Source: an uncultured Alphaproteobacteria bacterium
Lineage (GTDB): Bacteria; Pseudomonadota; Alphaproteobacteria; RF32; CAG-239
Reading direction: 5' to 3'
Assembly (NCBI GenBank): GCA_944391695.1
Contig: CALXUO010000049.1
Location: forward strand, 127-64,126
DNA: 64,000 nucleotides
Shown one piece after another: positions 12,353 to 59,670 of the stretch. Both the position numbers and the translations under genes were made by a program. The first letter of the stretch is position 1; every line of letters starts with the position of its first letter. A model generated the notes under the pieces. The model saw only the letters and a list, made by a program, of their open reading frames with translations, was not told the DNA's origin and ran no database searches.

Positions 12353-12371
12353 GACTTTATCCTAAACTAAA

Positions 12372-13646: not shown

Positions 13647-13663
13647 TACCTATCCTTACTCCA

Positions 13664-14272: not shown

Positions 14273-14347
14273 ATAATTCTCTCCCTTTCTTGCAAAAACC
14301 GCTTGTTTTTAATCTAGTGTAGCATTACCGCTTTGTAAATTATTATT

Positions 14348-22786: not shown

Positions 22787-22788
22787 CT

Positions 22789-26088: not shown

Positions 26089-26096
26089 CTTGATTT

Positions 26097-27743: not shown

Positions 27744-28484
27744 CTACTCCACCTTGTTGCGGCTTAACGCATATCTTAACACCGTAAATCCGACCGGATT
27801 TTTTAACCTGTCGTCATACTTAACCTTTTTGCGACGATAGCCGACATTCAATGATGCCGTCCAATAACCTATCTCCGGCTCAGTAGAATCCGGATACATA
27901 TCCCTTGTTTCATATTCAACCTGCCAAATACCGTCTGTCAACTCATTAACTGACAAAATCTTTACCGTGCGTTCAAAACCTTTATTCTTGATAAGACTAA
28001 TCGCTTTGGTCGCAACATTATCCAAAAAATCCTGATAAACACGATTATCCGACATCTCTTGTATAGGGCCGCCCGGCATCCATCTGGCCTCAACCTCAGA
28101 AACATCGCTACTGAAAGTACTGCGCAAGAGAACATACTCCCTTACAAACACCTCGGTAATCGCTTTACGATTGCGCAATTCCGTCGTGAGTGGCTGAATA
28201 TTATAAACTTGTTCGGAACGATTTTGAAACGTAAGCAAAAACGGCTCAACCCTATATAGCGGAACAACTTGGAAAATAGCCAGAATCAACACGATATTGC
28301 AACACAAACTAACCGCCGTAATTACTGCAAACGCTCTAGCTGTCCACAAATAGCGTTTTTCAGCAATGTTGGCAACAAAAATATCCTCACCTGCGCTTTT
28401 TGATGAAGAGCCACGCCCAGGTATGCGGCGACGCCCCTCCAAAAGCCTTGACTGCGGTTTATCCTGTCCGATTTCTTCCACCAT
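27744..28484 (-). CDS. virB8: VirB8 homolog (paralog 2)
   Basis: 246 aa. An N-terminal cytoplasmic stretch is followed by the TM helix 'AFAVITAVSLCCNIVLILAIFQVVPL', then 'VEPFLLTFQNRSEQVYNIQPL' and 'ITEVFVREYVLLRSTF', which are typical VirB8 periplasmic-domain motifs. Confidence 0.8.
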   Translation of the reverse strand: MVEEIGQDKPQSRLLEGRRRIPGRGSSSKSAGEDIFVANIAEKRYLWTARAFAVITAVSLCCNIVLILAIFQVVPLYRVEPFLLTFQNRSEQVYNIQPLTTELRNRKAITEVFVREYVLLRSTFSSDVSEVEARWMPGGPIQEMSDNRVYQDFLDNVATKAISLIKNKGFERTVKILSVNELTDGIWQVEYETRDMYPDSTEPEIGYWTASLNVGYRRKKVKYDDRLKNPVGFTVLRYALSRNKVE

Positions 28485-28505: not shown

Positions 28506-28694
28506 CTATATCGTTGCGACAAACCAATCAGGCAGAGTCTTCGGCAACTCTACCTCCATACAGGCGCACGGCGATAATTTAAGCTCATCGTTGCCGGAAC
28601 CTATACCTATAGGCTCAGGCTCGTAATAAGAACCATAGCAGCCCGATAACACAAATAAAACAAACAGAATCAATATTTTACATCTTGTTTTCAT
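28506..28694 (-). CDS. virB7: VirB7-like small lipoprotein
   Basis: I trimmed the ORF to the ATG at 28694 (AGGAGG upstream). It is 62 aa, with 'MKTRCKILILFVLFVLSGC' carrying an LSGC lipobox. It sits between two virB8 paralogs and upstream of virB9, as rvhB7 does in Rickettsiales. Confidence 0.6.
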   Translation of the reverse strand: MKTRCKILILFVLFVLSGCYGSYYEPEPIGIGSGNDELKLSPCACMEVELPKTLPDWFVATI

Positions 28695-28799
28695 GAGAAA
28701 CAACCCTCCTTAAGGGGTTAATATATAGCACTATAGATAGTATGAAATTATACCGTTTTATTTTAAATGTCTAACAGCTTAGATATACTTATCAACAAA

Positions 28800-29555
28800 T
28801 TAGAACACTTCTACTTCGGTTTGAGAATAACGTGTAACCGTAAAACCCAGTGGATTAATCAACCGCGGGACAACAAATGATCTTTCAGGTATAAAATACG
28901 CCGTTATAGATGATGTCCAATATCTGACGCGCAAGGTAGATTCTTGTTGCGCTTGATTCTTGCCTTGCTCGTTATATAAATCATAAGTTTTAAAATCAAC
29001 TTTCCATACCGCTGAACGATTGCCCCCTTGGCGAGTAACCGAAATAATCTCTACCTCACGAACTAAAACTTGTTTGAATATTGTTTCCCATATTGTTTTG
29101 GTGGTTCGACCAAATTCATTATATGTATCGGGTGAAGAAAGATAATCAACCATACCTCCGCCCATCCAACGCGTGCGCATCTCTACCGGGTCATTGATGA
29201 TGGTATTGCGAATGATAACATATTGCCGAATAAACATTTCCAATAATTTGTCTTTTGAGGCCATATCCTGGGCTATGGCCTCATTACGAACAATATTGTC
29301 GGATTCACTTTGATTTATCAGTAAAAATGGCTCAACCGTAACTAATGGCGCCAGCCTAAACAATGATAATGACGCCAAAACTAGGAAAATCATTGATATC
29401 GTCGCGGTTAGGATAAAAAAACGCGAAACCCATAAATAATAAATCTGCTTAAAGGTGGTGCGCTCTTTCTCCAAATATTCTATATATTGTGGAGCGTCAA
29501 CCGCCCCAGAAATAGCCAATCTTTGAGTTCCGCCAGATATTTGTTTTGCCTCCAT
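28800..29555 (-). CDS. virB8: VirB8 homolog (paralog 1)
   Basis: 251 aa with TM helix 'FFILTATISMIFLVLASLSLFRLAPL', then 'VEPFLLINQSESDNIV' and 'LEMFIRQYVIIRNTI'. It is colinear with the paralog at 27744. Confidence 0.8.
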   Translation of the reverse strand: MEAKQISGGTQRLAISGAVDAPQYIEYLEKERTTFKQIYYLWVSRFFILTATISMIFLVLASLSLFRLAPLVTVEPFLLINQSESDNIVRNEAIAQDMASKDKLLEMFIRQYVIIRNTIINDPVEMRTRWMGGGMVDYLSSPDTYNEFGRTTKTIWETIFKQVLVREVEIISVTRQGGNRSAVWKVDFKTYDLYNEQGKNQAQQESTLRVRYWTSSITAYFIPERSFVVPRLINPLGFTVTRYSQTEVEVF

Positions 29556-29573: not shown

Positions 29574-32500
29574 TTAATAGTTTGCACAGTAGGGATCTTC
29601 TGAGTCATTATAATCTTTAGAATCTTCTTTTAAACTATTTTTATATTTATCTACAACGGCGCTGTCGGCTTCAGCCTTTTTTAGATCTGCATCAATATCG
29701 TTGCTGTCGGCCGTGGTGGGTGATATACGCATCAAACCTTCGGTGTCTTTTTTCATGGTGGAGATAAGCTTATCTAGTATCTCTACTTTCTCTTTAGCCG
29801 GCTCATTATCTGTTTGATCTACCCCCGACAAATCTTTTGAAGCTTTGTCTATTTGCTTATTTTTAATTTCTTTTATCTTTTTTACTGCCAATTGATAATC
29901 GGAATCATTGCGCAAATCAAAATCATCCGACGGTGTAAAGCCATAGCTTATAAGCGTTTCTTTTAGCTCGTCTAGGCTCTCGTTATATTTTTTTCTGTAT
30001 TCTTCCAGATTTTCCCGTTGCAGCTTCTCATTCTCGACAAAGTACAAGAAATCTCCTATCTGATTGCGCGACAATGCCGCAAAATTTGCCGAGGCAACTT
30101 CGTCTTTCTTGTTATCGTTAAGATCTTCTCCTTCATCTTCGCCCAAATGTCTATATGCCTCAAAAGCCCTTTTCCTAAATTGCAAATTGTTATTATCATC
30201 AGCTTCAAGCAACATCCCGAGTTCGCTGTAAGTGCACTCCGGATCTGCTGCTTCTTCATTTGAAAAAAATGTTGATCCGAATTTCACCGGAGAATCAAAT
30301 ATCGTATGATATGGTTTGCCGTTTTCCATCTTTATCAGCATACAATCAGATAATTCTGATACATTTAAATCCGTGCGATACAAAAATTCACCCTTACTGT
30401 TTACATCCAAAACTTTTGACGTGCCTTTAATCTTACACGGCATTATGCCTCCACGAGAAAAAGCAACATCCACACAGCCGTTATCCAGCGCTTCTTTCAG
30501 GTTATACTCTGCCTCAATAAAAGCATGATCTTTTAGCATATACTGCCAAATAAGCGGTATGTCGCCACCATAGTTCAAAAAGTCGGAAGCGGTTATATTG
30601 CGGTCTTTTTTATTTTTGATAACCGGTTTGACGTTGGCAAAATCGGTGGCGTCAAAGTGAAAAACCTCTCGAACATGCGGAAGATTAAAGTTTGGAATGG
30701 CAAACGGCGCTTTCAAATCTCTTTCTTTGGCCGTGGCTCCGATAAAGAAACCTTCCGTTTCGGCTTTAGTGTCTGCAGATAGTAATGCCGCATAAACTGC
30801 TATATTACTCAACCTGGCAAAGCCTGCAACATTGTAGCTGATGGTTAAAGCCTTAATCCTGTCAATCATCTGCTGATGTATTCTTACAACCTCTGAATGT
30901 GTTGCCGGATTGTATAACTTGTCTTTAAGCCCCAGTATTTCGTTATAGCCTTCATCAACAACAACATCTACCATTTCATAAAGATTAACCAAGGCTCTGT
31001 CGGCCTCTTCTCTGGCCTTTTTTATTAATGCATCGGGATCTATTAAAGGATTGTCTTCAACCATTTCGGCAATTATGGCTCGCAAATTTTTTGAAACATC
31101 CTCCGAATATTGCTGAGAACTTTTTTGTATGCTCTCGTTCCATTCTGCCTGAAGCGAGAGGACGTTTGACAAACCTGCTGCCATACTTGAGGTGGCTGCA
31201 TCTTGAGCTGCCAATTTTGCCAGGGCTATTTCTTCATCAATTGCATCAAGCTGAGCCTGATACCCGTCAAGTTGGGCTTTGTTTGATGTTATTGTCGCTT
31301 CCAGTCCGGAAATCTTACTCTCATCAGTTTCATCTTTTTTTGCCTCGGAAACAGCTGTGTTTAGCTCCTCAACTCCCAAAATCTTGTCTTCAACCGTATC
31401 CGTAGTGTTTTCACTATCAGAGTATACAACCTTGGCGGTTACTTTAGCTTCTATTGCCTGTGTTGCTTTGTTTTCGGCAACGGATCTGATATCGGCAATT
31501 TCATTACTGCTGTCGCTTATAACTTTATTAACAGCATCCATTTGGGCAATTATTTGTGAACGTTGGGCTTCCAGCCCGGAAACTGCTTCTTGCCCCGAAC
31601 TGCTGCTTTGCGCGTTAGATATAACTTCGCCTCTGGCTTGAACTATTTCGGCCGATGCTTTATCCCTGGCCTCTTGGAGCTGTTGTTGATATTTGGTTTT
31701 TGATATATCTTGACTTTCACCCTTGAGTTTGGCCACAACAAGAGCTAAAACATCATCGCTGGTATAGCCTTTGAGATAGGATTTAATATTTTCATATTTG
31801 CGCCGCAAATATTGCTGATAAAAATTTTTGGTGTCCGTCCAAACAAGTGATTTTTTGCCTTGTTCTCCCCATTGAGAAGCATTTTCTCCAAGTGTTTTGG
31901 CGGCCTCAGCTCCGATTTGCCAAGCAAGTAACGCTGATTCTCTCCCCTCTTTTTGGGATTCTTCCTGTTTGCTTGCATCTACCGAAACCTTAACTGCTTG
32001 GCCTTCTTTCTCTGCTTTGCTCATGTCTGGATCATCCAAAAGATCTGCTTTCTTTTCATCATCAATTGAGGTTTGTGCTATATCTTCTGCCGTTATGGTT
32101 GATGTCTCGGCGGCTTTGGCTGTTTCGTATGCTTCTATCGCCCAAGCCGAAATCCCGCTTCGTAAATCATGATTGTTTACATTTTCTCCCAAATTGCCTC
32201 CGGACCATACATCCGCCGAATTATTAAAATATTCTCCGATATAGTTAGCGGCACATTGATCGGAAATAGATAATTTTTGTAGTACCGTTTCATGGTCTCT
32301 TTCCATCTCGGCAAGTTGATCTGCCACTTGTTTATAGCCTTTTAGGGAGCTGAGAATATTGTGTATTTGCATTGCTACATTAACTTCATCTTCAATTTCT
32401 TTAAGATTATCAAGTGTTTCCAGCTTGCTCTCAGCCTTTATAAGCGGATGTTCATTATCGGGCTCTTCGGGAGAGACGAATTCTACCGTTTGTTTAACAA

Positions 32501-33500
32501 TTGTTGCTCCGGAGCTTGAACCTGCGGAAACCGAACTTGTCGTCGCAGCCGATGCGGCCTGAGCCGAGGCCTTTTGGACAATTCTCATCGCTTCTGATTT
32601 ATTACCGGAAACCGCAGCTTCCATATTGGATAATGATGAAGCAACATCTTTATAAGCAACTTGCGCAAATGCCAATTGTTCTGATTGATGCTTAAAAATC
32701 GGCGGAAGCCTCAAATAGGCCTCGGTTGCACTATCCGAACCCTCTGATGCTTCTTCGGTATCAAGCTGCGGGGTTATCCTTTGCATACTTTTAACTGCTT
32801 TAAGCTGAGCCTTAAGGGCTACAACATTCTCCCATAACCTTATGACACTATCAAACGCTTTTAATGTTTGGCCATAGGCAAATAAGACTTCATTATTGCC
32901 TCCGGATTCTTCATCTTCCTCTGAATCGGTGCTTGGGATATTACACAATGATCCGTCGCCTTCGGCACAATCTTTGGCTAGTTCTATCTTGGCTCTGATG
33001 TCATTGCTTACTTTTTCTTGAAGAATTCTTGCGGCCTGATAAATGGCATAAACGTTTTCAATATAAAACTTGTTGCGTTGGTCTATTGAATAATTTACAT
33101 CGGCTATTTTGTTGGATTTGTAGGTAAAAAAGACTTTGCGCATTTTTTTGGCAATTTTTTTGACCTTTACATTTTTGAGGTCTTGGCCGCAAAAAGTTGC
33201 ACCAATATCATCGGGACCGACGTCTTCATCAAATATCGCACCGCTTTTAATATTGTTAAAAGTTGCCGTTAACGCCGATTGGAGGCTGGTTATATCTGAT
33301 TTGGCTTGTAAAACAATCTCGTTTCCCTGTTGAATACCACTTTGAATATTAGCCGCAAATTGCGGAATTTCTTCTGGAATATCAAATGTTATAGATGGAC
33401 CTAGACCATGATATATCAAATCCCACGGCATTTGAGCATATGCCAGAGACGACAACGCCAACATAATACTTATTAAGACTATAAATATCTGCTTTCTCAT
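29574..33500 (-). CDS. secreted 1308-aa coiled-coil protein, unknown family
   Basis: Signal peptide 'IVLISIMLALSSLAYAQ'. The N-terminus 'ITFDIPEEIPQFAANIQSGIQQGNEIV' follows, then very long A/E/K/Q/S-rich predicted helices. The C-terminal globular part contains Cys residues and the protein ends 'DPYCANY'. Confidence 0.6.
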   Translation of the reverse strand: MRKQIFIVLISIMLALSSLAYAQMPWDLIYHGLGPSITFDIPEEIPQFAANIQSGIQQGNEIVLQAKSDITSLQSALTATFNNIKSGAIFDEDVGPDDIGATFCGQDLKNVKVKKIAKKMRKVFFTYKSNKIADVNYSIDQRNKFYIENVYAIYQAARILQEKVSNDIRAKIELAKDCAEGDGSLCNIPSTDSEEDEESGGNNEVLFAYGQTLKAFDSVIRLWENVVALKAQLKAVKSMQRITPQLDTEEASEGSDSATEAYLRLPPIFKHQSEQLAFAQVAYKDVASSLSNMEAAVSGNKSEAMRIVQKASAQAASAATTSSVSAGSSSGATIVKQTVEFVSPEEPDNEHPLIKAESKLETLDNLKEIEDEVNVAMQIHNILSSLKGYKQVADQLAEMERDHETVLQKLSISDQCAANYIGEYFNNSADVWSGGNLGENVNNHDLRSGISAWAIEAYETAKAAETSTITAEDIAQTSIDDEKKADLLDDPDMSKAEKEGQAVKVSVDASKQEESQKEGRESALLAWQIGAEAAKTLGENASQWGEQGKKSLVWTDTKNFYQQYLRRKYENIKSYLKGYTSDDVLALVVAKLKGESQDISKTKYQQQLQEARDKASAEIVQARGEVISNAQSSSSGQEAVSGLEAQRSQIIAQMDAVNKVISDSSNEIADIRSVAENKATQAIEAKVTAKVVYSDSENTTDTVEDKILGVEELNTAVSEAKKDETDESKISGLEATITSNKAQLDGYQAQLDAIDEEIALAKLAAQDAATSSMAAGLSNVLSLQAEWNESIQKSSQQYSEDVSKNLRAIIAEMVEDNPLIDPDALIKKAREEADRALVNLYEMVDVVVDEGYNEILGLKDKLYNPATHSEVVRIHQQMIDRIKALTISYNVAGFARLSNIAVYAALLSADTKAETEGFFIGATAKERDLKAPFAIPNFNLPHVREVFHFDATDFANVKPVIKNKKDRNITASDFLNYGGDIPLIWQYMLKDHAFIEAEYNLKEALDNGCVDVAFSRGGIMPCKIKGTSKVLDVNSKGEFLYRTDLNVSELSDCMLIKMENGKPYHTIFDSPVKFGSTFFSNEEAADPECTYSELGMLLEADDNNNLQFRKRAFEAYRHLGEDEGEDLNDNKKDEVASANFAALSRNQIGDFLYFVENEKLQRENLEEYRKKYNESLDELKETLISYGFTPSDDFDLRNDSDYQLAVKKIKEIKNKQIDKASKDLSGVDQTDNEPAKEKVEILDKLISTMKKDTEGLMRISPTTADSNDIDADLKKAEADSAVVDKYKNSLKEDSKDYNDSEDPYCANY

Positions 33501-33512
33501 CTCTTGCCCTCC

Positions 33513-35462
33513 TTAAAACATTCCGCCAAGGAAATTAGATATTGCCGAAGATGAATCTTCGTCTTCTGTTGCGCTTTCTTCATCTGACGATAATTCCTTA
33601 TCCTGCTTTTCAGCTTCTGTTGCAAGTGTTGGCGATTTATTCTTTGTCGCTTCTTGCATCTCTTCATCCGCCAAAGGAGTTTTTGCCCCCTCTTCTTGAG
33701 AAGACAACAAACTTTCTGCTTCGGACTTTTTATCTGTCACGGCTGATTTTGCTTCATCATCAGTCTCTTTTATGTCTTTAGCTTCCGCGGCTGAAGTAGC
33801 TAAACTTTCTTTGGATGCGGCAACATCGGTTGTTTCGGGATATAAAATGTCATATATGGAAGAAGCCATCGTTTCCGCAGCTGACGGCGAGCTGCTTGTT
33901 GCAGCCACGCTCGGAGTTATTGCCTGCTTTGTCTGGGTGCTTGCCTTTGATGACGAGCTATTGCTTGTTGCTCCGCTTAAAGTTTTGCTTTTACTTGCTC
34001 CTTGAGAGCCGGATGAGGTTGATGCCGATCCATCATTTGAAGAGCCGCTTGTTTTACTGTCTGTATTGTCGGCATCTTCATCGCTTGATGATGAGCCTGT
34101 TGTTCCACCGGATGAACCGCTACCAGATAAGCTTCCACCGGATGAACCGCCAAAGCCGGCGCCGATGCCACCCAGACTATCGCCCAATTCACCGATATCC
34201 CCCATAATGTCTTTAACATCATCTACTTTGTCTTGCAGGTTGTTGATTCCGTCCTTGGCATCATTTATCATGTCTGATATATTCATTCCGTCATCGTCAT
34301 CTCCCGTGTAACTGCAAATATCAATTACCGTTTTGGCATCAGTTACCGGTATTTGACTGTTGGCAATAATATTAATCGTTTCGGTCTCTATTGCTAAAAG
34401 TTCCATTGTCAGATACTTTTGCAAGGCCTCCATTTGATAAATAATGTTATTGATGGCAAACTGCGCGGCCTCGGATTTTCCGTTTACGGTTTCGGAAGTA
34501 TCGGAAACTGTTTCCTGCTCATCTTTGGTGTCTTCTGTTAAGGCTAGTACCATAACGGCACCCGACGAAGCATCTATGGCCGATTTTCTGGATTTTGCTC
34601 TTCTGCTTTCGGAACGTTTTTTCTTATCTTTTAGTGAAATACTTTCCCCTTCTTTAACCGCCATTTCTTCCATCATTTCTTCTATTCCCTGCTCAGGACT
34701 AACCTCGGAAACCGAAGAATTTTCTTTCTTTTGCGTTATTTCGCTCAACTCTTTGGTCAGCTCGGCAATCTTTTTGGTTTGGTTAACAATGCTTTCTGCA
34801 AACTCTTGATTTGTCGCATTTACCTGATCACTAAGCTTGCTTTCTACAGAATCTATTTCTGATTGAATTGCTGCTAAGTCTTTCTCGCTGGTGGTTTCAA
34901 AATCAGCTATCTTTTTTTCTATGGACGCCTTTTCCTCATCAGAAGAAGCGGCGGCAAGCTCTTCTTCATAGATGGAGTACCTGGCATCCAAATTGCTTTT
35001 GACCTGTTTGAGTTTTTCTTCCAATGTGGTACGTTCAACCTCAGATGCAGATTGAATTTCACTTAGTTTTGTCTCTTTTTGGCTTTGTAAATCTTGCAAA
35101 ACTTTGGTTTCTTGAGCTATCTCCTTGGATTTGAGTGCAATCTTATAGGTGTCAGAATCTTTGACCGTATCCTGAACATCGTTGTAAATTTCAACTATTT
35201 CGGCATATTTTTCTTTGGCAAATTCCATACCTTCTTTGGCCGCCTTTATCCCATCTCCGATAAAAGTGGCAAACTGCGATTCACTGATTTGCTCCATCAC
35301 ATTCTGATAATTCTCTTGTTGTTTTTGAATCCAATCAGCAAATTTGCCGCCTGTTTTGCCGGGGTCAATCTTAAAAATATCTTGCGCCAAAACATCGGTG
35401 CTGATAAAAGACATCGCCAAAAAAACAATCAGAAAATAATTTAATTTAGATGGCTTATTCAT
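33513..35462 (-). CDS. secreted 649-aa coiled-coil and S/T/G-rich low-complexity protein
   Basis: Signal peptide 'FLIVFLAMSFISTDVLAQ'. The N-terminal half is coiled coil. The C-terminal half is low complexity ('GGSSGGSLSGSGSSGGTTGSSSSDEDADN'). Its start overlaps the upstream gene's stop by 1 nt (TAATG). Confidence 0.6.
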   Translation of the reverse strand: MNKPSKLNYFLIVFLAMSFISTDVLAQDIFKIDPGKTGGKFADWIQKQQENYQNVMEQISESQFATFIGDGIKAAKEGMEFAKEKYAEIVEIYNDVQDTVKDSDTYKIALKSKEIAQETKVLQDLQSQKETKLSEIQSASEVERTTLEEKLKQVKSNLDARYSIYEEELAAASSDEEKASIEKKIADFETTSEKDLAAIQSEIDSVESKLSDQVNATNQEFAESIVNQTKKIAELTKELSEITQKKENSSVSEVSPEQGIEEMMEEMAVKEGESISLKDKKKRSESRRAKSRKSAIDASSGAVMVLALTEDTKDEQETVSDTSETVNGKSEAAQFAINNIIYQMEALQKYLTMELLAIETETINIIANSQIPVTDAKTVIDICSYTGDDDDGMNISDMINDAKDGINNLQDKVDDVKDIMGDIGELGDSLGGIGAGFGGSSGGSLSGSGSSGGTTGSSSSDEDADNTDSKTSGSSNDGSASTSSGSQGASKSKTLSGATSNSSSSKASTQTKQAITPSVAATSSSPSAAETMASSIYDILYPETTDVAASKESLATSAAEAKDIKETDDEAKSAVTDKKSEAESLLSSQEEGAKTPLADEEMQEATKNKSPTLATEAEKQDKELSSDEESATEDEDSSSAISNFLGGMF

Positions 35463-36025
35463 TATTTTCCTCCTGCCTTATTTAGATATTCACAATCGCT
35501 GACATAGTCATAATTACCATTATCCAACGCAAGAAACTCGGAATAAATACCGGGGGCCATATTATCAAGCTCTTCCAAAGCATCAAGCATGGCTATACCC
35601 GCCTCAAACGAATTAATGATATTAATGCGCCTGGCTATGTCAGCCGTGCTTTGAATAATGCCCTCTTCAATAATGGCTATTTCGTTTGATATATCGGCCG
35701 ATAAAGAATCGTCTTCCTCATCTTCTTCCTCTTCGGCAATGTATGCTGATATCTTAATCGACTGAGCATATAAATTAGATATATAATTTGAAAAAATATC
35801 ATAAAGATTCTTGGTGGTAGTTGAAGTTTGACCTACCCCGGGCTTAATCGATTTAATAATGCGACACATATTGTAGGGGGTCTCCTCTATATCTTCGTCT
35901 CCTAACGGTGAAAGCCACAAGAGCTCAGGATCGCCCTTGACTTTGGCATAGGCATCGGTCAGCATTATAAAAAAGCTGCAGATAAAACACATAACCAATA
36001 CAAAATATTTACTATTTTGCAGCAT
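35462..36025 (-). CDS. secreted 187-aa protein, unknown family
   Basis: I trimmed the ORF to the ATG at 36025 (AAGGAG RBS). The product begins 'MLQNSKYFVLVMCFICSFFIMLTDAYA'. The annotated upstream 47 codons are the K/R-rich out-of-frame 3' end of the preceding gene. Confidence 0.55.
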   Translation of the reverse strand: MLQNSKYFVLVMCFICSFFIMLTDAYAKVKGDPELLWLSPLGDEDIEETPYNMCRIIKSIKPGVGQTSTTTKNLYDIFSNYISNLYAQSIKISAYIAEEEEDEEDDSLSADISNEIAIIEEGIIQSTADIARRINIINSFEAGIAMLDALEELDNMAPGIYSEFLALDNGNYDYVSDCEYLNKAGGK

Positions 36026-37544
36026 TGATTCTCTCCTTAATTGTTTGCGATGATGTGGCATCCGTTGCTGTTGCCGATGAAATGCCTTTTTTCGCCGTAT
36101 CTGAAAGTTTGCCTTTTTCCTCATCATCAACAACCTTTTCTTTGGCCTTTGAGGCTGCCTGCTCATCAGCTGTGGCTACCGCTTCTTTTGCCTGGTTTTC
36201 AGCCTCTTTGGCCTTTGAGCCTGCCTGCTCATCAGCTGTGGCTACCCCGTCTTTTGCCTGGTTTTCAGCCTCTTTGGCCTTTGAGCCTGCCTGCATATCA
36301 GCTGTGGCGGATATAATACCTGCCGATGTTACTTGAGGCATAGCCACCGCTGAGGCAGATTGTAAACCCAAAGATGTTTGCGCCGAAGTTGCTTGTTGGT
36401 TTGAAGGTACTGTTTGTTGAACAACGGCCGAGGTCTGAGCTGCGCTTGCGGTATTTGAGGTTATGGTTCTGATTGTTGAATTTTGAACATTAAAATCAAC
36501 CAACCTCTCTGCCGACGTGCTACTTACTCGATTATCTGAATTATGAGAACGATTTGATACCTCGGCAAGTTGTTGACTGATATTGAGTTGGCTTACAACC
36601 GGTGTTTGGGTTACGCTTGCTTCTTTTGAAGTATTGGAAATTGCCGTCATAACGTCGGAGACACTAACCTCTTGTTTCTTTTCTACCGTAGGAAGCGAAA
36701 CAACAGAAGCAACTTTATCGGCCGAAACGGCGCTTGAAGAGGCTAATGCCGATGCCGACATAATTGCCGAGGCTTTGTTTAATGCTTCTTTATTCGTTGT
36801 CGATGCTACAGCAGATGTTGCTGTTTTCAAACTTTTATCAGCAGATGTTGATGTTGCTGTTGTCAATTGCTTGGACGCACTTGTTTCTTTATTGCTGCTG
36901 CCTGAGGAAACATCTTTACTGCTACTAGAGGAAACTCCTTTATTGCTGCTGCCGGAGGAAGCATCTTTACTGCTACTAGAGGAAACTCCTTTATTGCTGC
37001 TGCCGGAGGAAGCATTATCATTTGTGCCTTCTGCAGATGTAGAATCTGATGTCTCTTTATTATCGCCGATTAAATCCGAAACAGTACCATCAATATCTTC
37101 TTTAATTTCTTGTGCCTGTTCATAATATGACATCATCTCTTCTTTGATGGATTGGCCTTGGGCAATGGCTTCTTGCGCTTTATCCCTATATTCTTGTGCC
37201 TTGGCATTAAGCTCTTGATATTTGGCCATTAGTTCTTCTTTGCGTTCTTGAGCTGTTTCAATACGTTCCTTAAGATTCTCTGCTTTTTCTTTGAGATTCT
37301 CAGCCTTTTCTTTTAATTTTTCTAGTTTTCCTAAGTTTAGTTTTTCAGGGTCTAGACTAACCTTGGTGGTTACCAGTTTTCGTGCAACGCCAGAATATTT
37401 TTTTTGAACCAAACTTGCTTGTTTTAAAAAACTATTGCTTTGGGTTAGGACATTTGACAATAAGTCGGTGCCACCATAAGCTAAATTGATATTTAGATTT
37501 ATGGTCACTAAGATAACTAAAAATATTTGCACCATCTTAGTCAT
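36012..37544 (-). CDS. secreted 510-aa coiled-coil and S/A/T-rich repeat protein
   Basis: I trimmed the ORF to the ATG at 37544 (AAGGAAA RBS). The product begins 'MTKMVQIFLVILVTINLNINLAYG'. It contains 'KEKAENLKEKAENLKERIE', 17-aa 'SSGSSNKGVSSSSSKD[AV]' repeats, and 22-aa 'ADEQAGSKAKEAENQAKEAVAT' repeats. Confidence 0.6.
   Translation of the reverse strand: MTKMVQIFLVILVTINLNINLAYGGTDLLSNVLTQSNSFLKQASLVQKKYSGVARKLVTTKVSLDPEKLNLGKLEKLKEKAENLKEKAENLKERIETAQERKEELMAKYQELNAKAQEYRDKAQEAIAQGQSIKEEMMSYYEQAQEIKEDIDGTVSDLIGDNKETSDSTSAEGTNDNASSGSSNKGVSSSSSKDASSGSSNKGVSSSSSKDVSSGSSNKETSASKQLTTATSTSADKSLKTATSAVASTTNKEALNKASAIMSASALASSSAVSADKVASVVSLPTVEKKQEVSVSDVMTAISNTSKEASVTQTPVVSQLNISQQLAEVSNRSHNSDNRVSSTSAERLVDFNVQNSTIRTITSNTASAAQTSAVVQQTVPSNQQATSAQTSLGLQSASAVAMPQVTSAGIISATADMQAGSKAKEAENQAKDGVATADEQAGSKAKEAENQAKEAVATADEQAASKAKEKVVDDEEKGKLSDTAKKGISSATATDATSSQTIKERINAAK
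36135..36310 (-). repeat. in-frame tandem repeat, 66-bp unit, about 2.7 copies
   Basis: 'tttggcctttgag.ctgcctgc' recurs at 36141, 36207 and 36273. Confidence 0.8.
36880..37020 (-). repeat. in-frame tandem repeat, 51-bp unit, about 2.7 copies
   Basis: 'attgctgctgcc' recurs at 36891, 36942 and 36993. Confidence 0.8.
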
Positions 37545-37560
37545 AATTGTTTCCTTTCCG

Positions 37561-38133
37561 CTACGATGGAGGCATTCCCCACGAAGTATCTTCTGTATCA
37601 ACATCTGTTTCTTTAACTATGTTGTTTAAGATGTTGTTTATGTTGTCAAAATTAATAATAGACGATCTCATGTCTATTGCTTGCAAAAATACGCTTGAAT
37701 TATCTGAAGACAGCTTGTTATTAAACTCCATTTTTTCGCGGCTATCATTATCAAGCTCAACCGAAACGGTAGGATCTTGCTTGATAAGTTCGTCAATCCT
37801 GTCTTCATAGCCTCCGGATAAAACTTTTTGATTTATGGCCTTAAATAAATAGGCTCTTGCATAGTCATTAATAATCGCTTTCTTTTCCGATTCATAATTT
37901 TCATATCCGGGAGGTAAGTCGGTTTTATAATCATAGGCTAAGCGCCTTATGCAATCTTCCGTTATACCGGGATCGCTGGAATCCAAGCCGCAACGTAACG
38001 CCAAAATCTCGGAAACAATTAATGTATTGTTGGCGTCTCTTCCGTTGTCTTTATTTTCTGCCAGGGAAATCTGACAAAATAAAACATTTGCCAATAAAAC
38101 AATTAAAAGATATTTTAGCGTTCTTTTCATCAT
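37561..38133 (-). CDS. secreted 190-aa protein that appears homologous to the C-terminal domain of the 721-aa protein upstream
   Basis: I trimmed the ORF to the ATG at 38133, immediately after the upstream stop. The product begins 'MMKRTLKYLLIVLLANVLFCQISLA'. 'CGLDSSDPGITEDCIRRL...INDYARAYLFKAINQK' aligns by eye with 'CDLDYEKAIEDEENFDECLKK...HAEYIAMAYLKAFNIY' of the 38135..40300 product. Confidence 0.55.
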   Translation of the reverse strand: MMKRTLKYLLIVLLANVLFCQISLAENKDNGRDANNTLIVSEILALRCGLDSSDPGITEDCIRRLAYDYKTDLPPGYENYESEKKAIINDYARAYLFKAINQKVLSGGYEDRIDELIKQDPTVSVELDNDSREKMEFNNKLSSDNSSVFLQAIDMRSSIINFDNINNILNNIVKETDVDTEDTSWGMPPS

Positions 38134-38134
38134 T

Positions 38135-40300
38135 TTATTCTCCCAAAACGTTTTCATTGTCCTCGTCAGTTTCCTTAATCGCTTCCGTAACATAAGCCCT
38201 GAAAGCTTTTATACTTAAGGTATCGGCCCATATATTGTTTAGTGCATTATAGCGGGTTCCCAAAATACGTGTCACCTCTTTGGCATAGCTCCAAGCATCG
38301 TCAACCGTGCTAATGTTTGAAGTAAGAATCGGGTCAATCATGTTGTTTTTGAATGTCATACTATCGTTATAGATGTTAAAAGCTTTCAAATATGCCATTG
38401 CAATGTATTCTGCATGACTGTTATTTATGTTTCTTTTGGAATTAGAGATGTCTTGCTTGCTTATATCTTCGGTTACTTCGCTTGCAGCGACGGTGTTAGT
38501 TTTTTTTAAGCACTCGTCAAAATTTTCTTCATCTTCAATAGCCTTTTCATAGTCTAAGTCGCAACTTATGGCCAAACTGTCAGGAATGATTAAAGCTTTG
38601 TCTTGCGTATAACCGCTTTTGCTGCCGGTTATCTCTGATAATAAACTAGCAAATGCCAACGGATAGCTTTGATGTATGCTTCCAAAGCCATAAGAAGTCT
38701 TAAAGGCTCTGCGTGTAGGCTTATTTGAGGAGGTAGATTGGGGGACCTGTGCTGAAGACGAGGTTTCATTTTTTTCATAAGCAGACGTCGTTGCTTTGGA
38801 CGTTGCTGCTTTGGTATTACTTACGGTGGTTGCTCTTGTTCCTACACTTGCACCCTCTTTTGCGGCAGAAACAGCGGTTTGAGCGGTTGCCGCTTTGGCA
38901 TTACTTACGGCGGTTGCTCTTGTTCCTACACTTGCGCCCTCTTTTGCGGCAGAAACAGCTGTTTGAGCGGTTGCTTCTTTGGCATCGCTTACGGCGGCAT
39001 CACCTGGTTTGTCTGCCCCCTCACCCTCTTTTGCGGCAGAATCGGCGGTTTGAGATGTTGCCGCTTTGGCATCGCTTACGGCGGCATCACCTGGTTTGTC
39101 TGCTCCCTCACCCTCTTTTGCGGCAGAATCGGCGGTTTGAGACGTTGCCATGGCAGTGTCGGCAGGTGTTGTAATTTGACTTGACATCGCGGGAGAAACC
39201 TCTGTCGAAGCCATATTACCTGTCATAGTAGGAACTGTTTCAACAGCTGTTGCCATTTGGGCAGATGAAGTAGCCGTAGTATTAGCAGCTGAACTTTGAT
39301 TATCAACCGTAACAAAAGCCGTTCTGGTGGGACTTGCTGCTTGGACTGACGGAATTGCCGCCACCACTTGAGAAACGCTGTTATTGGCAACTGCAGAAAC
39401 TGCTTTGGTTGCGGCGGTCGCTTGGATTGCCGGAGTTGCAGAAACTGCTTTGGTTGCGGCGGTCGCTTGGACTGCCGGAGGTGCAGAAACTGCTTTGGTT
39501 GCGGCGGTTGCTTGGACTGCCGGAGGTGCAGAAACTGCTTTGGTCGAGGCGGTTGCTTGGATTGCCGGAGTTGCAGAAACTGCTTTGGTTGCGGCGGTCG
39601 TTTTTTCTGCCGAGGTTGCAGCAGTTGCCTTAGAAACCTTACTATTAGCACTGGCAGAAACTGCTTTGGTTGAGGCTGTCGTTTTTTCTGCCGAGGTTGT
39701 TGCTTTACTAGCCGAAATTTTTGCCTTGGATGTTCCTTTTGCTGTATTCTCCGCTGTTTCTTGTGAACTTTCTTTATATTGAGAACTTCCGGTTGTTACG
39801 TTTCCGTCAGCCGCGCTATATGCTTCGCCATTGTTATCATTTCCACCGGTAAAATCATCAACATAGCCTTTGGCATCGTCAATATAGCCTTTGGCTTCGT
39901 CAATATAGCCTTTGGCTTCGTCAACATACCCTTTGGCATCATCAATATAGCCTTTGGCCTGTTCTATTTTGGCTTCGGCTTCCGCCTTATAGGCCATGGC
40001 TTTGGCTTTGAATTCTTCAACATCTTCTTTATACTGATTAAATTTATCAATTTTTTTTTGCAACTTTTCTTTTTGATCGGTAATAAATTCCGTCACACTC
40101 TTTTTGGCCGTACCAATAGCTGCCATCGTTTTTTGATATTGTGTAACCTGCGTTACACTTTCCTTAAAATTATTTATGGTGTTTTGAACCTCGGTTCCGG
40201 CTTGAAGAGTTCCCGGAATGTCAAATGTGGGGACAAACGCAAGGCTAAGTGAAGGAAATAACATAATTCCAAATAATGCTGATAAAAAATGCTTTTTCAT
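38135..40300 (-). CDS. secreted 721-aa protein with a VirB5/TrbJ-like N-terminus, a large A/T/S-rich repeat core, and a conserved C-terminal domain
   Basis: Signal peptide 'LSALFGIMLFPSLSLA'. The mature N-terminus 'FVPTFDIPGTLQAGTEVQNTINNFKESVTQVTQYQ' resembles the xVPVxD...Q start of VirB5/TrbJ proteins. The gene lies directly downstream of virB4. It contains 7-aa 'KGY[IV]D[DE]A' repeats, 15-aa 'KAVSAPPAVQATAAT' repeats, and 28/29-aa repeats. Confidence 0.55.
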   Translation of the reverse strand: MKKHFLSALFGIMLFPSLSLAFVPTFDIPGTLQAGTEVQNTINNFKESVTQVTQYQKTMAAIGTAKKSVTEFITDQKEKLQKKIDKFNQYKEDVEEFKAKAMAYKAEAEAKIEQAKGYIDDAKGYVDEAKGYIDEAKGYIDDAKGYVDDFTGGNDNNGEAYSAADGNVTTGSSQYKESSQETAENTAKGTSKAKISASKATTSAEKTTASTKAVSASANSKVSKATAATSAEKTTAATKAVSATPAIQATASTKAVSAPPAVQATAATKAVSAPPAVQATAATKAVSATPAIQATAATKAVSAVANNSVSQVVAAIPSVQAASPTRTAFVTVDNQSSAANTTATSSAQMATAVETVPTMTGNMASTEVSPAMSSQITTPADTAMATSQTADSAAKEGEGADKPGDAAVSDAKAATSQTADSAAKEGEGADKPGDAAVSDAKEATAQTAVSAAKEGASVGTRATAVSNAKAATAQTAVSAAKEGASVGTRATTVSNTKAATSKATTSAYEKNETSSSAQVPQSTSSNKPTRRAFKTSYGFGSIHQSYPLAFASLLSEITGSKSGYTQDKALIIPDSLAISCDLDYEKAIEDEENFDECLKKTNTVAASEVTEDISKQDISNSKRNINNSHAEYIAMAYLKAFNIYNDSMTFKNNMIDPILTSNISTVDDAWSYAKEVTRILGTRYNALNNIWADTLSIKAFRAYVTEAIKETDEDNENVLGE
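38806..39150 (-). repeat. in-frame tandem repeats, 2 x 84 bp followed by 2 x 87 bp
   Basis: The anchor 'ctttgg' occurs at 38809, 38893, 38977 and 39064, with long near-identical flanks. The encoded units are 'ATAQTAVSAAKEGASVGTRATAVSNAKA' and 'ATSQTADSAAKEGEGADKPGDAAVSDAKA'. Confidence 0.85.
39393..39620 (-). repeat. in-frame tandem repeat, 45-bp unit, about 5 copies
   Basis: 'gcagaaactgctttgg' occurs at 39393, 39438, 39483, 39528 and 39573, with a degenerate copy near 39654. Confidence 0.9.
39857..39962 (-). repeat. in-frame tandem repeat, 21-bp unit, 5 copies
   Basis: 'ata[gc]cctttggc' occurs at 39863, 39884, 39905, 39926 and 39947. It encodes 'KGY[IV]D[DE]A' heptads. Confidence 0.85.
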
Positions 40301-40378: not shown

Positions 40379-42862
40379 TTAAATATTTAAATATTTTGTA
40401 ACAAAATTATTCTCACCATATTCTTTTATAAGCTCTTCAACCAATAATACATTTTTACGGCCGGAATTATACAGCTTAAGATATGGCCCTAATCCGCTTA
40501 AATCTACATCCAAAATAACCGATTCTCCCGTGGCCGGCCTTGATAATAGAATGGCATACGGAAAATCACGGTATGATTTACCAAAAATGAAATCCGTTTC
40601 CGCCTCGGTCAAATTCCAGTTAACATAGTCTTCCGGCATTGCCTGTGGATTGCGGAAGAAAATAACCGTTTGACATTGCCCCCTGATAACCTCGCCAACA
40701 CCAAGTTTATCAATGATATTGGGCTGTTGAAACGCACAAAGATACGCCTGGCGCTTTTTTCGTCCTTCTTGCAGACCAATTGCAAAATAGTCTCTAAACA
40801 TCGGGTGCTTAAGCATTGGCGCAGTTTCATCAATCATAATCAATGAGGGAACACCCGTCTCGCCGGTTTCTGACTGAATGCGGTGCATAATATAACTGAT
40901 TACCGCCGGGGCCAAAGTTTCGTCTTCAAAAATATGCGTAAAATCAAACGCCATAAATCGCTTGCTCTTTAAATCAAGATTGTCATCCTGCGCGTTGAAA
41001 ATATTTCCGTATTGGTCGGGGTTAACCCACTTAAAAAGCTCGCGGCGCATATTGCCTGTTGGAGAAAAACAGCTCTTGTAAAGATTTTTCATCATTCGCT
41101 CTTCCGGACGAAGGTAATCAAATGCCGTGGTAACTGCTCGGGCTATCTCTTTTTCCGATACAGCATCGTCAACTAATGTAATCGCTCTCATCCAACGTCT
41201 TAAAAAGGCTCGGTTGTTTGGAGTGTTTTCACAATCAAACGGATTTAACGATACATTTTTTTCATCACCTTCAAAGCCAACATATGCCCCGCCAATAGCG
41301 CGAGTGAAAATTTCTGCGCCTCGATGGCGGTCAAAGAAGAACACTTTTAAGTCTGCATGACGCATGGCTTGGCCGGCCAAAAATGTTAATAATGTGGTTT
41401 TACCTTGTCCGGTTGGACCTATAATACAACAGTGCGCCACCGCTGAATCTTCAGACGAAACGTGAAATTGAAAGCGATATGCCGAACCTGCCGTGGTACG
41501 GAAAACAGATATTGCTCCCGGACCCCAATCTGATTTGGAAAAACCTTCCGACGGTTTGTCAAAGGATATCGCCGTAGCTACAACTCTTGAAAGATAACGA
41601 TAGGTCCTGGGAAGAGTTTCATATGTGGGAAACTGATTAAAAAATGTCGCTTGCGCAACCCAACCTTCGCGAACCGGTGTTACACCAAACAAACGACATA
41701 TTCGCTGAACCTCTCCCTCAGCAAAGTCTATCTCTTCTTTGCTTTCTCCTCTCAGTAATATCGCCATGGCATATTCGGTCAAGGCCTGATGATTGCTATC
41801 GCTTTCTTCTATCGCGGCCAAAACTTCACCATACTGATCTATAACATCTCCGGAAAAACTCGTCATCGACGCCATGCGCTGTTGTTGCATCAGCAAAGCT
41901 CTTGCTTGAGGCTTAAATATCGGTCGAATATTATGCAGCAAAACTAATTCGCAATCTATTGCCAATAACGATGAGACCATCGCCTCATCCATATAATCAC
42001 CGGAAGAACGTATGCCCATAACAATTTCATACAGTTCTTTATCGCCGGAGAAAAATTTTATAAGACCATCCTCTCCGGTAAAGTGAATATGATCCGAGGT
42101 CAACAACTGATTTAATTGTGCTCCCGTCGCACCATGTACTTTCGGCATGGGGCGAGATATAGGCGAGCAAAGTTTTGAATACACACTAAAAGGACTGTCT
42201 TCGGCTGAGCTTCCCTCTTCCTCTATTAATGTCTTTATGCCATAATCATTTAATGTGGCTATTAACGACTGGGAAGCATAGTTTAAGTCTTTGAGATTGT
42301 TATCGCGATCCGCAACTGATAAAACTATGTAATGCGTATTAAAGAAAACTCGGTTAATGTTCTCTTGCCATATATCCGATATTTTCTCTAATAACGGATT
42401 GTTGAAATTATGCACGTTTTCTTCCAACGGCACTTTTTCTCTTATTGTAATGACCCGACAGACAACTTGCAAATCTGACATACCGTCGATCCAAGATTTG
42501 CGAGCCTCTAGCATTGATGCTACTTTTTCCTCTGTAGCAAATGCCAAATCTACACCTTCAACCTTAAAAACCCTTGCCAATGAGCCATTATAACAACTTA
42601 TGGTCATGCCGTCTGATAAGAGCTTTTCAAACGGCATAAAATCAGAAACCCTAGACTCCCTTGGATGCGGTAAAACCAAATGTCCAAATTTGGTAGCCCA
42701 AAATCCGGCAAATGCCGCTGCCGATATAAAACCAATCGCCGCAACAATTACTTCAAAACTGGACAGACCTTCTACGAAGATCGAAAAAAAATCATAATCA
42801 GGGTGCAAATTTGTTCCCCTTTGCTTTATAAAGATTGTTTGTCTTTTTAGCCGATTGGCCAT
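40379..42862 (-). CDS. virB4: VirB4-family T4SS ATPase
   Basis: The Walker A is 'IIGPTGQGKTTLLTFLAG' and the Walker B is 'PSLIMIDETAPML'. 'AYLCAFQQP' and the overall length are also consistent. The gene follows virB3. The start is uncertain: the ORF track begins at 42910, I chose the ATG at 42862 (MANRLKRQ), and either choice overlaps the virB3 3' end. Confidence 0.9.
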   Translation of the reverse strand: MANRLKRQTIFIKQRGTNLHPDYDFFSIFVEGLSSFEVIVAAIGFISAAAFAGFWATKFGHLVLPHPRESRVSDFMPFEKLLSDGMTISCYNGSLARVFKVEGVDLAFATEEKVASMLEARKSWIDGMSDLQVVCRVITIREKVPLEENVHNFNNPLLEKISDIWQENINRVFFNTHYIVLSVADRDNNLKDLNYASQSLIATLNDYGIKTLIEEEGSSAEDSPFSVYSKLCSPISRPMPKVHGATGAQLNQLLTSDHIHFTGEDGLIKFFSGDKELYEIVMGIRSSGDYMDEAMVSSLLAIDCELVLLHNIRPIFKPQARALLMQQQRMASMTSFSGDVIDQYGEVLAAIEESDSNHQALTEYAMAILLRGESKEEIDFAEGEVQRICRLFGVTPVREGWVAQATFFNQFPTYETLPRTYRYLSRVVATAISFDKPSEGFSKSDWGPGAISVFRTTAGSAYRFQFHVSSEDSAVAHCCIIGPTGQGKTTLLTFLAGQAMRHADLKVFFFDRHRGAEIFTRAIGGAYVGFEGDEKNVSLNPFDCENTPNNRAFLRRWMRAITLVDDAVSEKEIARAVTTAFDYLRPEERMMKNLYKSCFSPTGNMRRELFKWVNPDQYGNIFNAQDDNLDLKSKRFMAFDFTHIFEDETLAPAVISYIMHRIQSETGETGVPSLIMIDETAPMLKHPMFRDYFAIGLQEGRKKRQAYLCAFQQPNIIDKLGVGEVIRGQCQTVIFFRNPQAMPEDYVNWNLTEAETDFIFGKSYRDFPYAILLSRPATGESVILDVDLSGLGPYLKLYNSGRKNVLLVEELIKEYGENNFVTKYLNI

Positions 42863-43088
42863 AAGCCTGAACCATTGCCGAAATATGCGGCTCTCTTGCC
42901 CCCATCGCAATACAGACTATATGCCCTAAAATAATTGACGCCATAAACCAAAGAGGATTAATTTCTAATGTCCCTAAAAACATGAACATCATCGGAAATT
43001 GTATTCCCATGTTAACCATCACCGGCAAAAACGGCCCCCATAAAATCTTTGGGGGATTGGCTACGGCTTTCAAAATAACTTCCCTCAT
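42798..43088 (-). CDS. virB3: VirB3-like small inner-membrane protein
   Basis: 96 aa. 'LKAVANPPKILWGPFLPVMVNMGIQFPMMFMF' fits the VirB3 pattern (xxRPxxxxGVP followed by two hydrophobic helices). The gene is immediately upstream of, and overlaps, virB4. Confidence 0.7.
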   Translation of the reverse strand: MREVILKAVANPPKILWGPFLPVMVNMGIQFPMMFMFLGTLEINPLWFMASIILGHIVCIAMGAREPHISAMVQAYGQSAKKTNNLYKAKGNKFAP

Positions 43089-52359: not shown

Positions 52360-52491
52360 ATGCGACGCGAAAAATCAAATTTGATTTACTATGTGGTTGC
52401 CGTTGTGATTGTTGCTGCCTTGGGATTGGTTATGTTTCATGAAATTCCGCTGCATCAAGAACATGTTGAAGAAGTTGTAAAACAGCTATGA
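52360..52491 (+). CDS. possible 43-aa single-TM micro-protein translationally coupled to xerD
   Basis: Not in the ORF track because it is under 60 aa. The product is 'MRREKSNLIYYVVAVVIVAALGLVMFHEIPLHQEHVEEVVKQL'. Its TGA overlaps the xerD ATG as ATGA (52488-52491). Confidence 0.35.
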   Translation: MRREKSNLIYYVVAVVIVAALGLVMFHEIPLHQEHVEEVVKQL

Positions 52492-59646: not shown

Positions 59647-59670
59647 TAAGTTTTACGGGAGATACCGGAG

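Follow-up and report, generated by a model that had tools for sequence, protein, structure and literature searches.

A conserved block of six predicted exported proteins between virB4 and virB8 in a type IV secretion locus of uncultured Alphaproteobacteria

What stands in the place of virB5 in a type IV secretion operon whose virB4 is followed not by one gene but by six, all of them for proteins with export signals? The question is raised by a stretch of DNA of 64,000 nucleotides (nt), here called the window, which comes from an uncultured Alphaproteobacteria bacterium (assembly GCA_944391695.1, contig CALXUO010000049.1, positions 127 to 64,126) and carries a type IV secretion system (T4SS) locus of the VirB type. 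Between virB4 and virB8 of this locus lie six genes, here named O1 to O6. In a first reading made from the letters of the window alone (the sequence-only reading), they had been regarded as an insertion and as a possible undescribed accessory module of the T4SS. In this study, we report the module structure, distribution and history of the six proteins, and conclude that the block is an accessory module specific to this lineage, inherited vertically and belonging to a VirB-type T4SS encoded on the chromosome. As to its role, we favour the reading, to which we give a probability of about 0.5, that the block is a lineage-specific distal or surface subassembly standing in for VirB5.

Gene layout and protein modules of the block

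The genes of the region are all on the minus strand, and within it O1 (38135..40300; 721 amino acids, aa), O2 (37561..38133; 190 aa), O3 (36012..37544; 510 aa), O4 (35462..36025; 187 aa), O5 (33513..35462; 649 aa) and O6 (29574..33500; 1308 aa) are consecutive and tightly packed. These coordinates and lengths bear out what the sequence-only reading had given for six consecutive open reading frames (ORFs), and the measured spacings agree with its description of overlaps of 1-14 nt or gaps of less than 20 nt: from O1 to O6 they are, in order, a 1-nt gap, a 16-nt gap, a 14-nt overlap, a 1-nt overlap and a 12-nt gap. For O2, O3 and O4 the ORFs delimited mechanically are longer; the shorter internal starts have GGAG-type ribosome-binding sites upstream, and these starts are also the ones chosen in public gene calls for identical metagenome contigs, giving 190, 510 and 187 aa. 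Terminator-like sites within the block numbered 16 against 14.9 expected, i.e. there was no excess. The tight spacing, the Shine-Dalgarno sites and the lack of a terminator excess together argue for membership of the block in the operon.

Each of the six proteins has a single N-terminal hydrophobic, signal-peptide-like segment with an AxA-like site, and no later transmembrane (TM)-like window was found in any of them when 19-residue windows were scanned at a Kyte-Doolittle hydropathy of at least 1.6. Among 374 orthologues the N-terminal hydrophobic segment was present in 339 and a later TM-like window in four. The hydropathy scan is in line with the earlier claim of a Sec-type signal peptide and no further TM helix in all six. 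Neither a lipobox nor a beta-barrel signature was found in O1-O6.

The earlier description of the proteins as largely low in complexity and rich in repeats was found to apply in part. Tracts rich in Ser, Thr, Ala and Gly (S/T/A/G-rich) make up 54% of O1 (aa 151-538), 45% of O3 (aa 151-287 and 354-445) and 23% of O5 (aa 412-562), and a short tract accounts for 5% of O6 (aa 284-351), the remaining 95% of which is not of low complexity. It does not fit O2 and O4, which are small proteins lacking such tracts, and tandem repeats in the DNA are confined to O1 (units of 21, 45 and 84/87 nt) and O3 (21, 51 and 66 nt).

A comparison of the six proteins with one another, which the sequence-only reading had suggested as a check for paralogy, revealed two shared domains. 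They were defined by iterated hidden Markov model (HMM) searches among the block proteins and then checked with hhalign. The N domain, a coiled coil downstream of the signal peptide, is common to O1 (aa 24-146), O3 (aa 38-155) and O5 (aa 31-242). The C domain, of about 140 aa, is common to O1 (aa 563-703), O2 (aa 30-167) and O4 (aa 47-152). O1-O4 are thus built of two helical modules, the N coiled coil and the C module with its two long helices. The N-termini of O1 and O3 matched each other at E 4e-6 by BLASTP and E 4e-17 by HMM, and hhalign related the N domain of O1 to that of O5 with a probability of 97 (E 8e-11) and the C domain of O1 to the O4 family with a probability of 98.9 (E 1.4e-17). 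The relationship of O2 to the O1 C-domain family was recovered by profile (E about 1e-34 to 3e-34), pairwise BLAST alone being weak (E 0.15).

The modules are combined differently in each protein. O1 consists of a signal peptide (aa 1-21), the N domain (DNA 39863-40231), a spacer of S/T/A-rich repeats (aa 151-538; DNA 38687-39850) and the C domain (DNA 38192-38614), which holds Cys580 and Cys597. O2 is a signal peptide with a stand-alone C domain and is a paralogue of the O1 C-terminus. O3 has a signal peptide, the N domain and a long S/T/A-rich tail with the 51-nt and 66-nt repeats, and O4 has its own signal peptide, a C domain of its own type and an AAGGAG ribosome-binding site; a protein identical to O4 is present on six metagenome contigs. 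O5 joins a signal peptide and the N-type coiled coil to a unique M domain (aa 323-410) and an S/G/T-rich acidic tail (aa 412-562 and beyond). O6 begins with a signal peptide and an N region (aa 38-285). Next come an M region that is helical and conserved (aa 341-600), a series of long coiled-coil hairpins and a C region of alpha/beta type (about aa 880-1120), in which Cys1022 and Cys1053 are invariant; a C-terminal PYCANY motif is conserved as well. The N region of O6 gave a weak hint of being a further N+C unit (hhalign probability 39%), and O6 is otherwise unique.

Distribution of the block and searches for known relatives

A scan with VirB4, using one genome per species, returned at least 174 relatives, from which 80 loci with VirB4 identity of 78-95% were kept. 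All of these relatives were found in metagenome-assembled genomes (MAGs) from human and animal guts that belong to uncultured Alphaproteobacteria, under labels such as 'Proteobacteria bacterium CAG:495', 'Azospirillum sp. CAG/51_20' and Candidatus Scatocola, a group that GTDB places in the order RF32. The N, C, O5N and O5M domains were located downstream of virB4 in all 72 loci that had at least 5 kb of downstream DNA. In 61 loci VirB8a comes after the O6 orthologue, and virB8 lies 7.3-9.8 kb after virB4 (median 8.5 kb), as compared with 10.8 kb in the window. The co-occurrence with the VirB4 clade that had been put forward as a check therefore holds in each of the 72 loci, with VirB4 identity as low as 78%, and the homologues, rather than being unrelated and widespread families away from T4SS loci, were found only inside the T4SS operon.

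A more distant MAG, L088, has the gene order VirB2 (three copies)-VirB3-VirB4-[311][229][647][1267]-VirB8-62aa-VirB8-VirB9, the bracketed numbers standing in place of the window's six genes. Such distant relatives carry four genes: a long one of N domain, spacer and C domain, a compact N+C gene of 219-296 aa that sits at the position of O3, an O5-type gene and an O6-type gene. The compact N+C family matched the O4 family with an hhalign probability of 100. On the sequence comparison, the four-gene block is the older form, O3 (N domain plus spacer) and O4 (C domain) of the window are the halves of a split ancestral N+C gene, and O2 is an additional C copy in the window's subclade. A different subclade has O1 and O6 split instead, and in one subclade the N region of O6 is a gene of its own, of about 230 aa. 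In every case the split pieces stay adjacent, which suggests that they act together, as interacting subunits would.

The block evolves fast. In their alignable parts O1-O6 are 31-62% identical where VirB4 is 90-92%, VirB3 77-81% and VirB8a about 80% identical, and lengths of the orthologues range from 301 to 843 aa for the O1 type and from 1210 to 1654 aa for the O6 type. In GC content the block does not differ from its flanks. Because of this flank-like composition and its presence in all 72 loci, the block is regarded as ancestral to this T4SS lineage and the term insertion was dropped; horizontal insertion, examined as a candidate origin, is ruled out by the same composition and by the presence of the block in every related locus examined.

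No known family was found for the block proteins. Searches of O1-O6 with the Pfam and NCBIfam families assigned none overall and gave no match at E of 1 or below to the VirB5/TrbJ models (PF07996 and PF13605 in Pfam, together with those of NCBIfam), a negative to be read with the fact that many genuine Agrobacterium VirB5 proteins likewise have no precomputed Pfam match; O5 had only a non-colinear match to PF13605, at E 0.069. For 29 compact orthologues there was no VirB5 family among the families listed (the best 25 of 53 and the best 25 of 36), and for 126 family representatives, again no VirB5 among those listed (the best 25 of 55), the matches being coiled-coil noise. Among 5.8 billion clustered proteins, O6 had 31 homologues, all unnamed and with no Pfam domain. 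The N+C family gave 64 word-indexed matches and, when searched exhaustively with HMMER, 174 clusters at 50% identity, its few named members being called 'hypothetical protein [Alphaproteobacteria bacterium]'. Sequence-profile searches of the PDB with the O6, N+C and O5 alignments returned coiled-coil or designed-protein noise, with no adhesin and no Cag protein among the results. No toxin or enzyme domain was detected in O1-O6 with Pfam and NCBIfam, nor, for O6, with PDB profiles and Foldseek.

Structure prediction gave a similar picture. The AlphaFold2 model of O6 (aa 23-1222) reached a predicted local distance difference test score (pLDDT) of 70.9 and a predicted template modelling score (pTM) of 0.59, being confident from about model residue 340 onward, and consists of long coiled-coil hairpins and an alpha/beta region. 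Foldseek comparison of this model with the PDB and BFVD yielded no match at E of 0.001 or below, only SMC, dynein and tape-measure-like coiled coils, and its match to enterococcal PrgA was non-significant (E 0.82). The model of the compact N+C orthologue P0059 is of low confidence (pLDDT 64, pTM 0.44) and has helices at residues 23-58, 83-87, 93-103, 113-151 and 165-205, i.e. one long, two short and two long. Pfam, NCBIfam, PDB profiles, hhalign and AlphaFold/Foldseek were all without a relative; the sequence-only reading, too, had recognised no family apart from the VirB5/TrbJ-like N-terminus of O1. Additionally, we found no publication on the block or on the T4SS of this group. Accessory T4SS proteins that are confined to one lineage and encoded in the VirB5 region are as such an already known kind of feature; the protein families, their N/C modular architecture and their link to an rvh-like T4SS of gut Alphaproteobacteria appear to be undescribed. 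The proposal of an undescribed T4SS accessory module is thus upheld, with synteny between virB4 and virB8 in the 72 loci and the distant MAG.

The surrounding locus and the place of VirB5

The block is bounded upstream by the VirB4 ATPase (40379..42910, minus strand; Pfam CagE_TrbE_VirB, E 5e-15) and downstream by VirB8a (28800..29555, minus strand; Pfam VirB8, E 1e-15). Pfam also identified VirB2 (47766-48269), VirB3 (42798-43088), a second VirB8 (27744-28484) and a VirB9 with a C-terminal SPOR domain (26097-27743), and VirB11 is encoded at 16760-17728. Between the two virB8 genes, at 28506..28703 (minus strand), lies the gene for a VirB7-like lipoprotein of 65 aa with the lipobox LSGC. This lipoprotein, with its lipobox, is highly conserved in about 40 related loci (GSYYEPEPVG...LSPCAC...LPDWF), and in L088 a 62-aa gene is found there.

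Five VirB6/TrbL-like paralogues are encoded on the minus strand, at 7902-10253 (783 aa), 6579-7883 (434 aa), 4635-6560 (641 aa), 2097-4625 (842 aa) and 53388-55340 (650 aa). Three of the five have weak TrbL/VirB6 matches (E 6e-4 to 7.5e-6), one of them reaching the Pfam cut-off, and the other two were assigned from topology alone. Downstream of the virB11 region four of the genes follow one another in tandem; the remaining one adjoins a gene for an XerC/D-type integrase (52488-53387).

With the VirB7-like lipoprotein and the five VirB6-like proteins found outside the block, VirB5 alone is unaccounted for in the locus. The sequence-only reading had placed the block in the slot of virB5, virB6 and virB7; the slot of VirB5 stands, while virB6 and virB7 are encoded elsewhere in the locus. 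That the block itself contains VirB6 or VirB7 was considered and ruled out, as its proteins have no TM helix or lipobox and those genes lie elsewhere.

Whether the block proteins belong to the VirB5 family was examined with a reference set of 63 homologues, collected with a seed 96.8% identical to the annotated VirB5 of the Ti plasmid together with a divergent Acetobacter VirB5. Against this set the domain families of the block scored hhalign probabilities of 11.7-26.6% (E 7e-4 to 2.5e-3), and the alignment was colinear nowhere beyond the signal peptide and first helix. The VirB5/TrbJ-like N-terminus that had been attributed to O1 was not recovered beyond this weak similarity (probability 19-27%). 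Since no Pfam, NCBIfam, PDB or Foldseek match to VirB5 was obtained either, membership in the VirB5 family is unsupported, and the resemblance of the block to VirB5 is positional and architectural. As regards a Sec-exported, soluble protein of about 220 aa beside virB4, by which VirB5 may be recognised, the compact N+C orthologues answer to the description, and in the window the corresponding unit is split (O3 and O4) or expanded (O1).

Several other genes of the locus are unusually large. The genes of an enlarged outer-membrane core occupy 17741-27743 (minus strand); they include a 1681-aa VirB10, in which 14 matches to beta-flower repeats precede the TrbI domain, and a beta-flower/YD-repeat protein of 1099 aa encoded between virB9 and virB10. 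Between virB2 and virB3, at 43247-47707 (minus strand), is a gene for a 1486-aa protein that has a signal peptide and, embedded in its sequence, a VirB2 pilin core: its aa 708-768 are 41% identical to the VirB2 of the window (E 7e-12), with an extension of about 700 aa on either side. Relatives have several VirB2/TrbC genes at the place of this protein, three in the case of L088.

No VirD4 or relaxase was found within the window, and a 773-aa ORF after virB11 has neither a Walker A motif nor a Pfam match. It is the first of four ORFs there (11669-16669, minus strand; 773, 202, 424 and 227 aa) with no Pfam family, of which the 424-aa product has a lipoprotein-like start (LLSSC). The middle of the cluster also holds a gene in the opposite orientation, at 10657-11628 (plus), for a 323-aa protein with two XRE-type helix-turn-helix domains, a candidate local regulator. 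A few kb from the T4SS, at 57315-62320 (plus), TcpQ-like, secretin and PilO-like genes point to a type IVb pilus cluster; a secretin and TcpQ also flank the T4SS in L088.

Possible role of the block and comparison with known systems

The favoured reading of a distal or surface subassembly in place of VirB5 may be set out as follows. All six products would be exported by Sec, after which the helical modules would assemble the proteins onto a platform of VirB6 and VirB2. The assembled proteins would form the distal, outward-facing part of the machine, either a stalk-to-tip or a fibre-and-adhesin complex, in replacement of VirB5, and the variable S/T/A-rich spacers could extend the C modules and O6 in the direction of a target surface. 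What we infer for the block is thus its location, its assembly and a role in adhesion. An exposed location is favoured by the Sec export signals, the conserved cysteines, which fit an oxidising compartment, the variable spacers and the fast divergence, and an elaborate fibre outside the cell is suggested by the 1486-aa protein with its VirB2 core, which the operon also encodes.

Several points weigh against this reading. Searches with Pfam, NCBIfam and PDB profiles detected no relationship of the block to VirB5, TrbJ, TraC or CagL, nor to an adhesin of any kind, and the profile-profile score with VirB5 is low and limited to the signal peptide and first helix. Of the structural models, that of the N+C unit is of low confidence and found nothing better than E 0.7 in the PDB with Foldseek, and that of O6 matches only generic coiled coils. 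Low-complexity tracts rich in Ala, Lys and Glu or in Ser and Thr occur in periplasm-spanning proteins too. Furthermore, all of the genomes are MAGs, the block is known from its genes alone, and the surface location, the contact with VirB2 and VirB6 and the pilus are each inferred.

The same strict co-conservation and fixed order would fit equally well if the six proteins were unexposed structural or assembly parts of the enlarged T4SS core, such as a periplasmic stalk, cage or spacer, comparable with the species-specific core proteins of the Cag and Dot/Icm systems. The core machine is indeed enlarged (the 1681-aa VirB10, the 1099-aa beta-flower protein and the VirB9 with SPOR domain), the block proteins have Sec signals yet no lipobox or beta-barrel signature, and their long coiled coils could span an enlarged periplasm. 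However, the block diverges much faster than VirB3, VirB4 and VirB8, the length of the S/T/A spacers with their tandem repeats is highly variable, which would be unusual for a buried scaffold of fixed geometry, and there is no similarity to the solved T4SS core components. We consider this explanation unlikely, though it is the strongest of the alternatives. A still less probable one is that the proteins are Sec-dependent cargo, a multi-subunit complex assembled in the periplasm and expelled by the T4SS in the way that pertussis toxin leaves through Ptl. The Sec signals on all six proteins agree with this, paralogous subunits could build a hetero-oligomer, and no VirD4 or relaxase is present in the window, an absence that holds for the window only. 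To our knowledge, Ptl lacks VirD4. It is likewise without VirB5 (PMC2653234). Against cargo, no toxin or enzyme domain was found in the six proteins, and cargo genes are usually variable and peripheral, whereas the block is universal, fixed in order and placed between core genes in 72 of 72 loci. The co-inheritance, the fixed order and the fission and fusion of adjacent pieces favour structural subunits over cargo. Least of all do we expect the proteins to be unrelated to the T4SS, i.e. generic adhesins or an S-layer-like coat of the surface or envelope merely co-transcribed with its genes; this we regard as very improbable. Their composition is like that of many surface fibrils and no T4SS family signature was found in them, but their homologues were found only at the T4SS-operon position, the O6 and N+C members retrieved are all unnamed and from the same MAG group, and synteny is kept down to 78% VirB4 identity.

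Carried further, the preferred reading of a distal subassembly leads to a more specific proposal, which is offered tentatively and as more doubtful than the reading itself. The block would be a new multi-subunit distal complex of a T4SS, a heteromeric fibre and tip made of N and C helical units with a coiled-coil head of about 1300 aa. It would be the functional, and perhaps very distantly the evolutionary, counterpart of VirB5 in an rvh-like system, kept by extracellular gut relatives and absent from Rickettsiales.

In at least 174 species-level genomes of gut Alphaproteobacteria the T4SS and the block are conserved with their gene order fixed, and they are likely to be central to the lifestyle of these bacteria. 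The locus joins hallmarks of the rvh signature, namely a VirB8 pair around VirB7, five VirB6 proteins and no recognisable VirB5, with an exported set in the VirB5 position. If the block faces outward, its proteins would represent new families of T4SS tip or adhesin proteins, could help to trace what the system is aimed at (host epithelium, mucus, protists or other bacteria) and would bear on how rvh-type systems work without VirB5. The rapid divergence makes the block proteins candidate strain markers or antigens. Should the distal-complex reading be true, the locus would show the distal end of an rvh-type machine before its adaptation to intracellular life, and a contact-dependent organelle for host or microbial targets in gut Alphaproteobacteria.

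Among known proteins, VirB5 and its relatives TraC and TrwJ, which are minor pilins of the pilus tip and stalk, share with the block the gene position directly after virB4, the Sec signal peptide and the lack of a TM helix, and several block members have an F/V-x-D-type motif after the signal peptide. TraC/VirB5 is a three-helix bundle with an appendage (PMC2653234), and the compact N+C orthologues (219-296 aa), with a predicted helix order of long, short and two long, would be compatible with the TraC fold. In contrast to VirB5, the block has four to six genes and not one, its modules are separated by hundreds of S/T/A-rich residues or placed in separate genes, O5 and O6 have no VirB5 counterpart, and sequence or profile similarity is not detectable.

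The closest functional analogy is with CagH, CagI and CagL of the Helicobacter pylori Cag system, which are contiguous, weakly similar, detectable at the surface and required for pilus formation (PMC3164655). The block likewise consists of contiguous genes for weakly similar exported proteins. It differs in having no sequence relationship to the Cag proteins, in its host organism and T4SS lineage, and in that the C-termini of O1-O6 differ from one another and do not share a common C-terminal hexapeptide motif. The Trw system of Bartonella is a T4SS without a coupling protein in which trwJ (VirB5) and trwL (VirB2) are tandemly amplified (PMC2610397), and it resembles the present locus in having paralogous, diversifying genes inside the T4SS locus; VirB6-like and VirB2-like genes are multiplied here as well. 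The Trw copies, however, are recognisable VirB5 proteins from recent tandem duplication, whereas the paralogues of the block are ancient, modular and unrecognisable as VirB5.

The locus as a whole may be compared with rvh, called a 'bona fide rickettsial signature' (PMC11077975). The rvh system of Rickettsiales lacks only VirB5, and its islet C in Rickettsia has the order virB8-virB7-virB8 (PMC2653234). Differences are that in Rickettsia virB4a is followed by virB6a-e and in the window virB4 is followed by the six secreted proteins, and that a second VirB4, a second VirB9 and a VirD4 after virB11 were not seen within the window. In the PDB the VirB8 proteins are matched best by the VirB8 chains 4kz1, 4mei and 4lso, which we take to be from Bartonella, and there was no Rickettsia VirB8 structure among the matches. 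Because of these VirB8 matches and the lack of a second VirB4 and VirB9, the context is called rvh-like and not rvh. On the other side, the window shares with rvh the order virB8-virB7-virB8-virB9-virB10-virB11, virB3 and virB4 head the first part of the locus, no VirB5 is recognisable, and the five VirB6-like paralogues recall rvhB6a-e in number and size. By its gene content and order, the T4SS of the window thus appears to share several hallmarks of rvh, with the six-gene block after virB4 where Rickettsia has virB6a-e.

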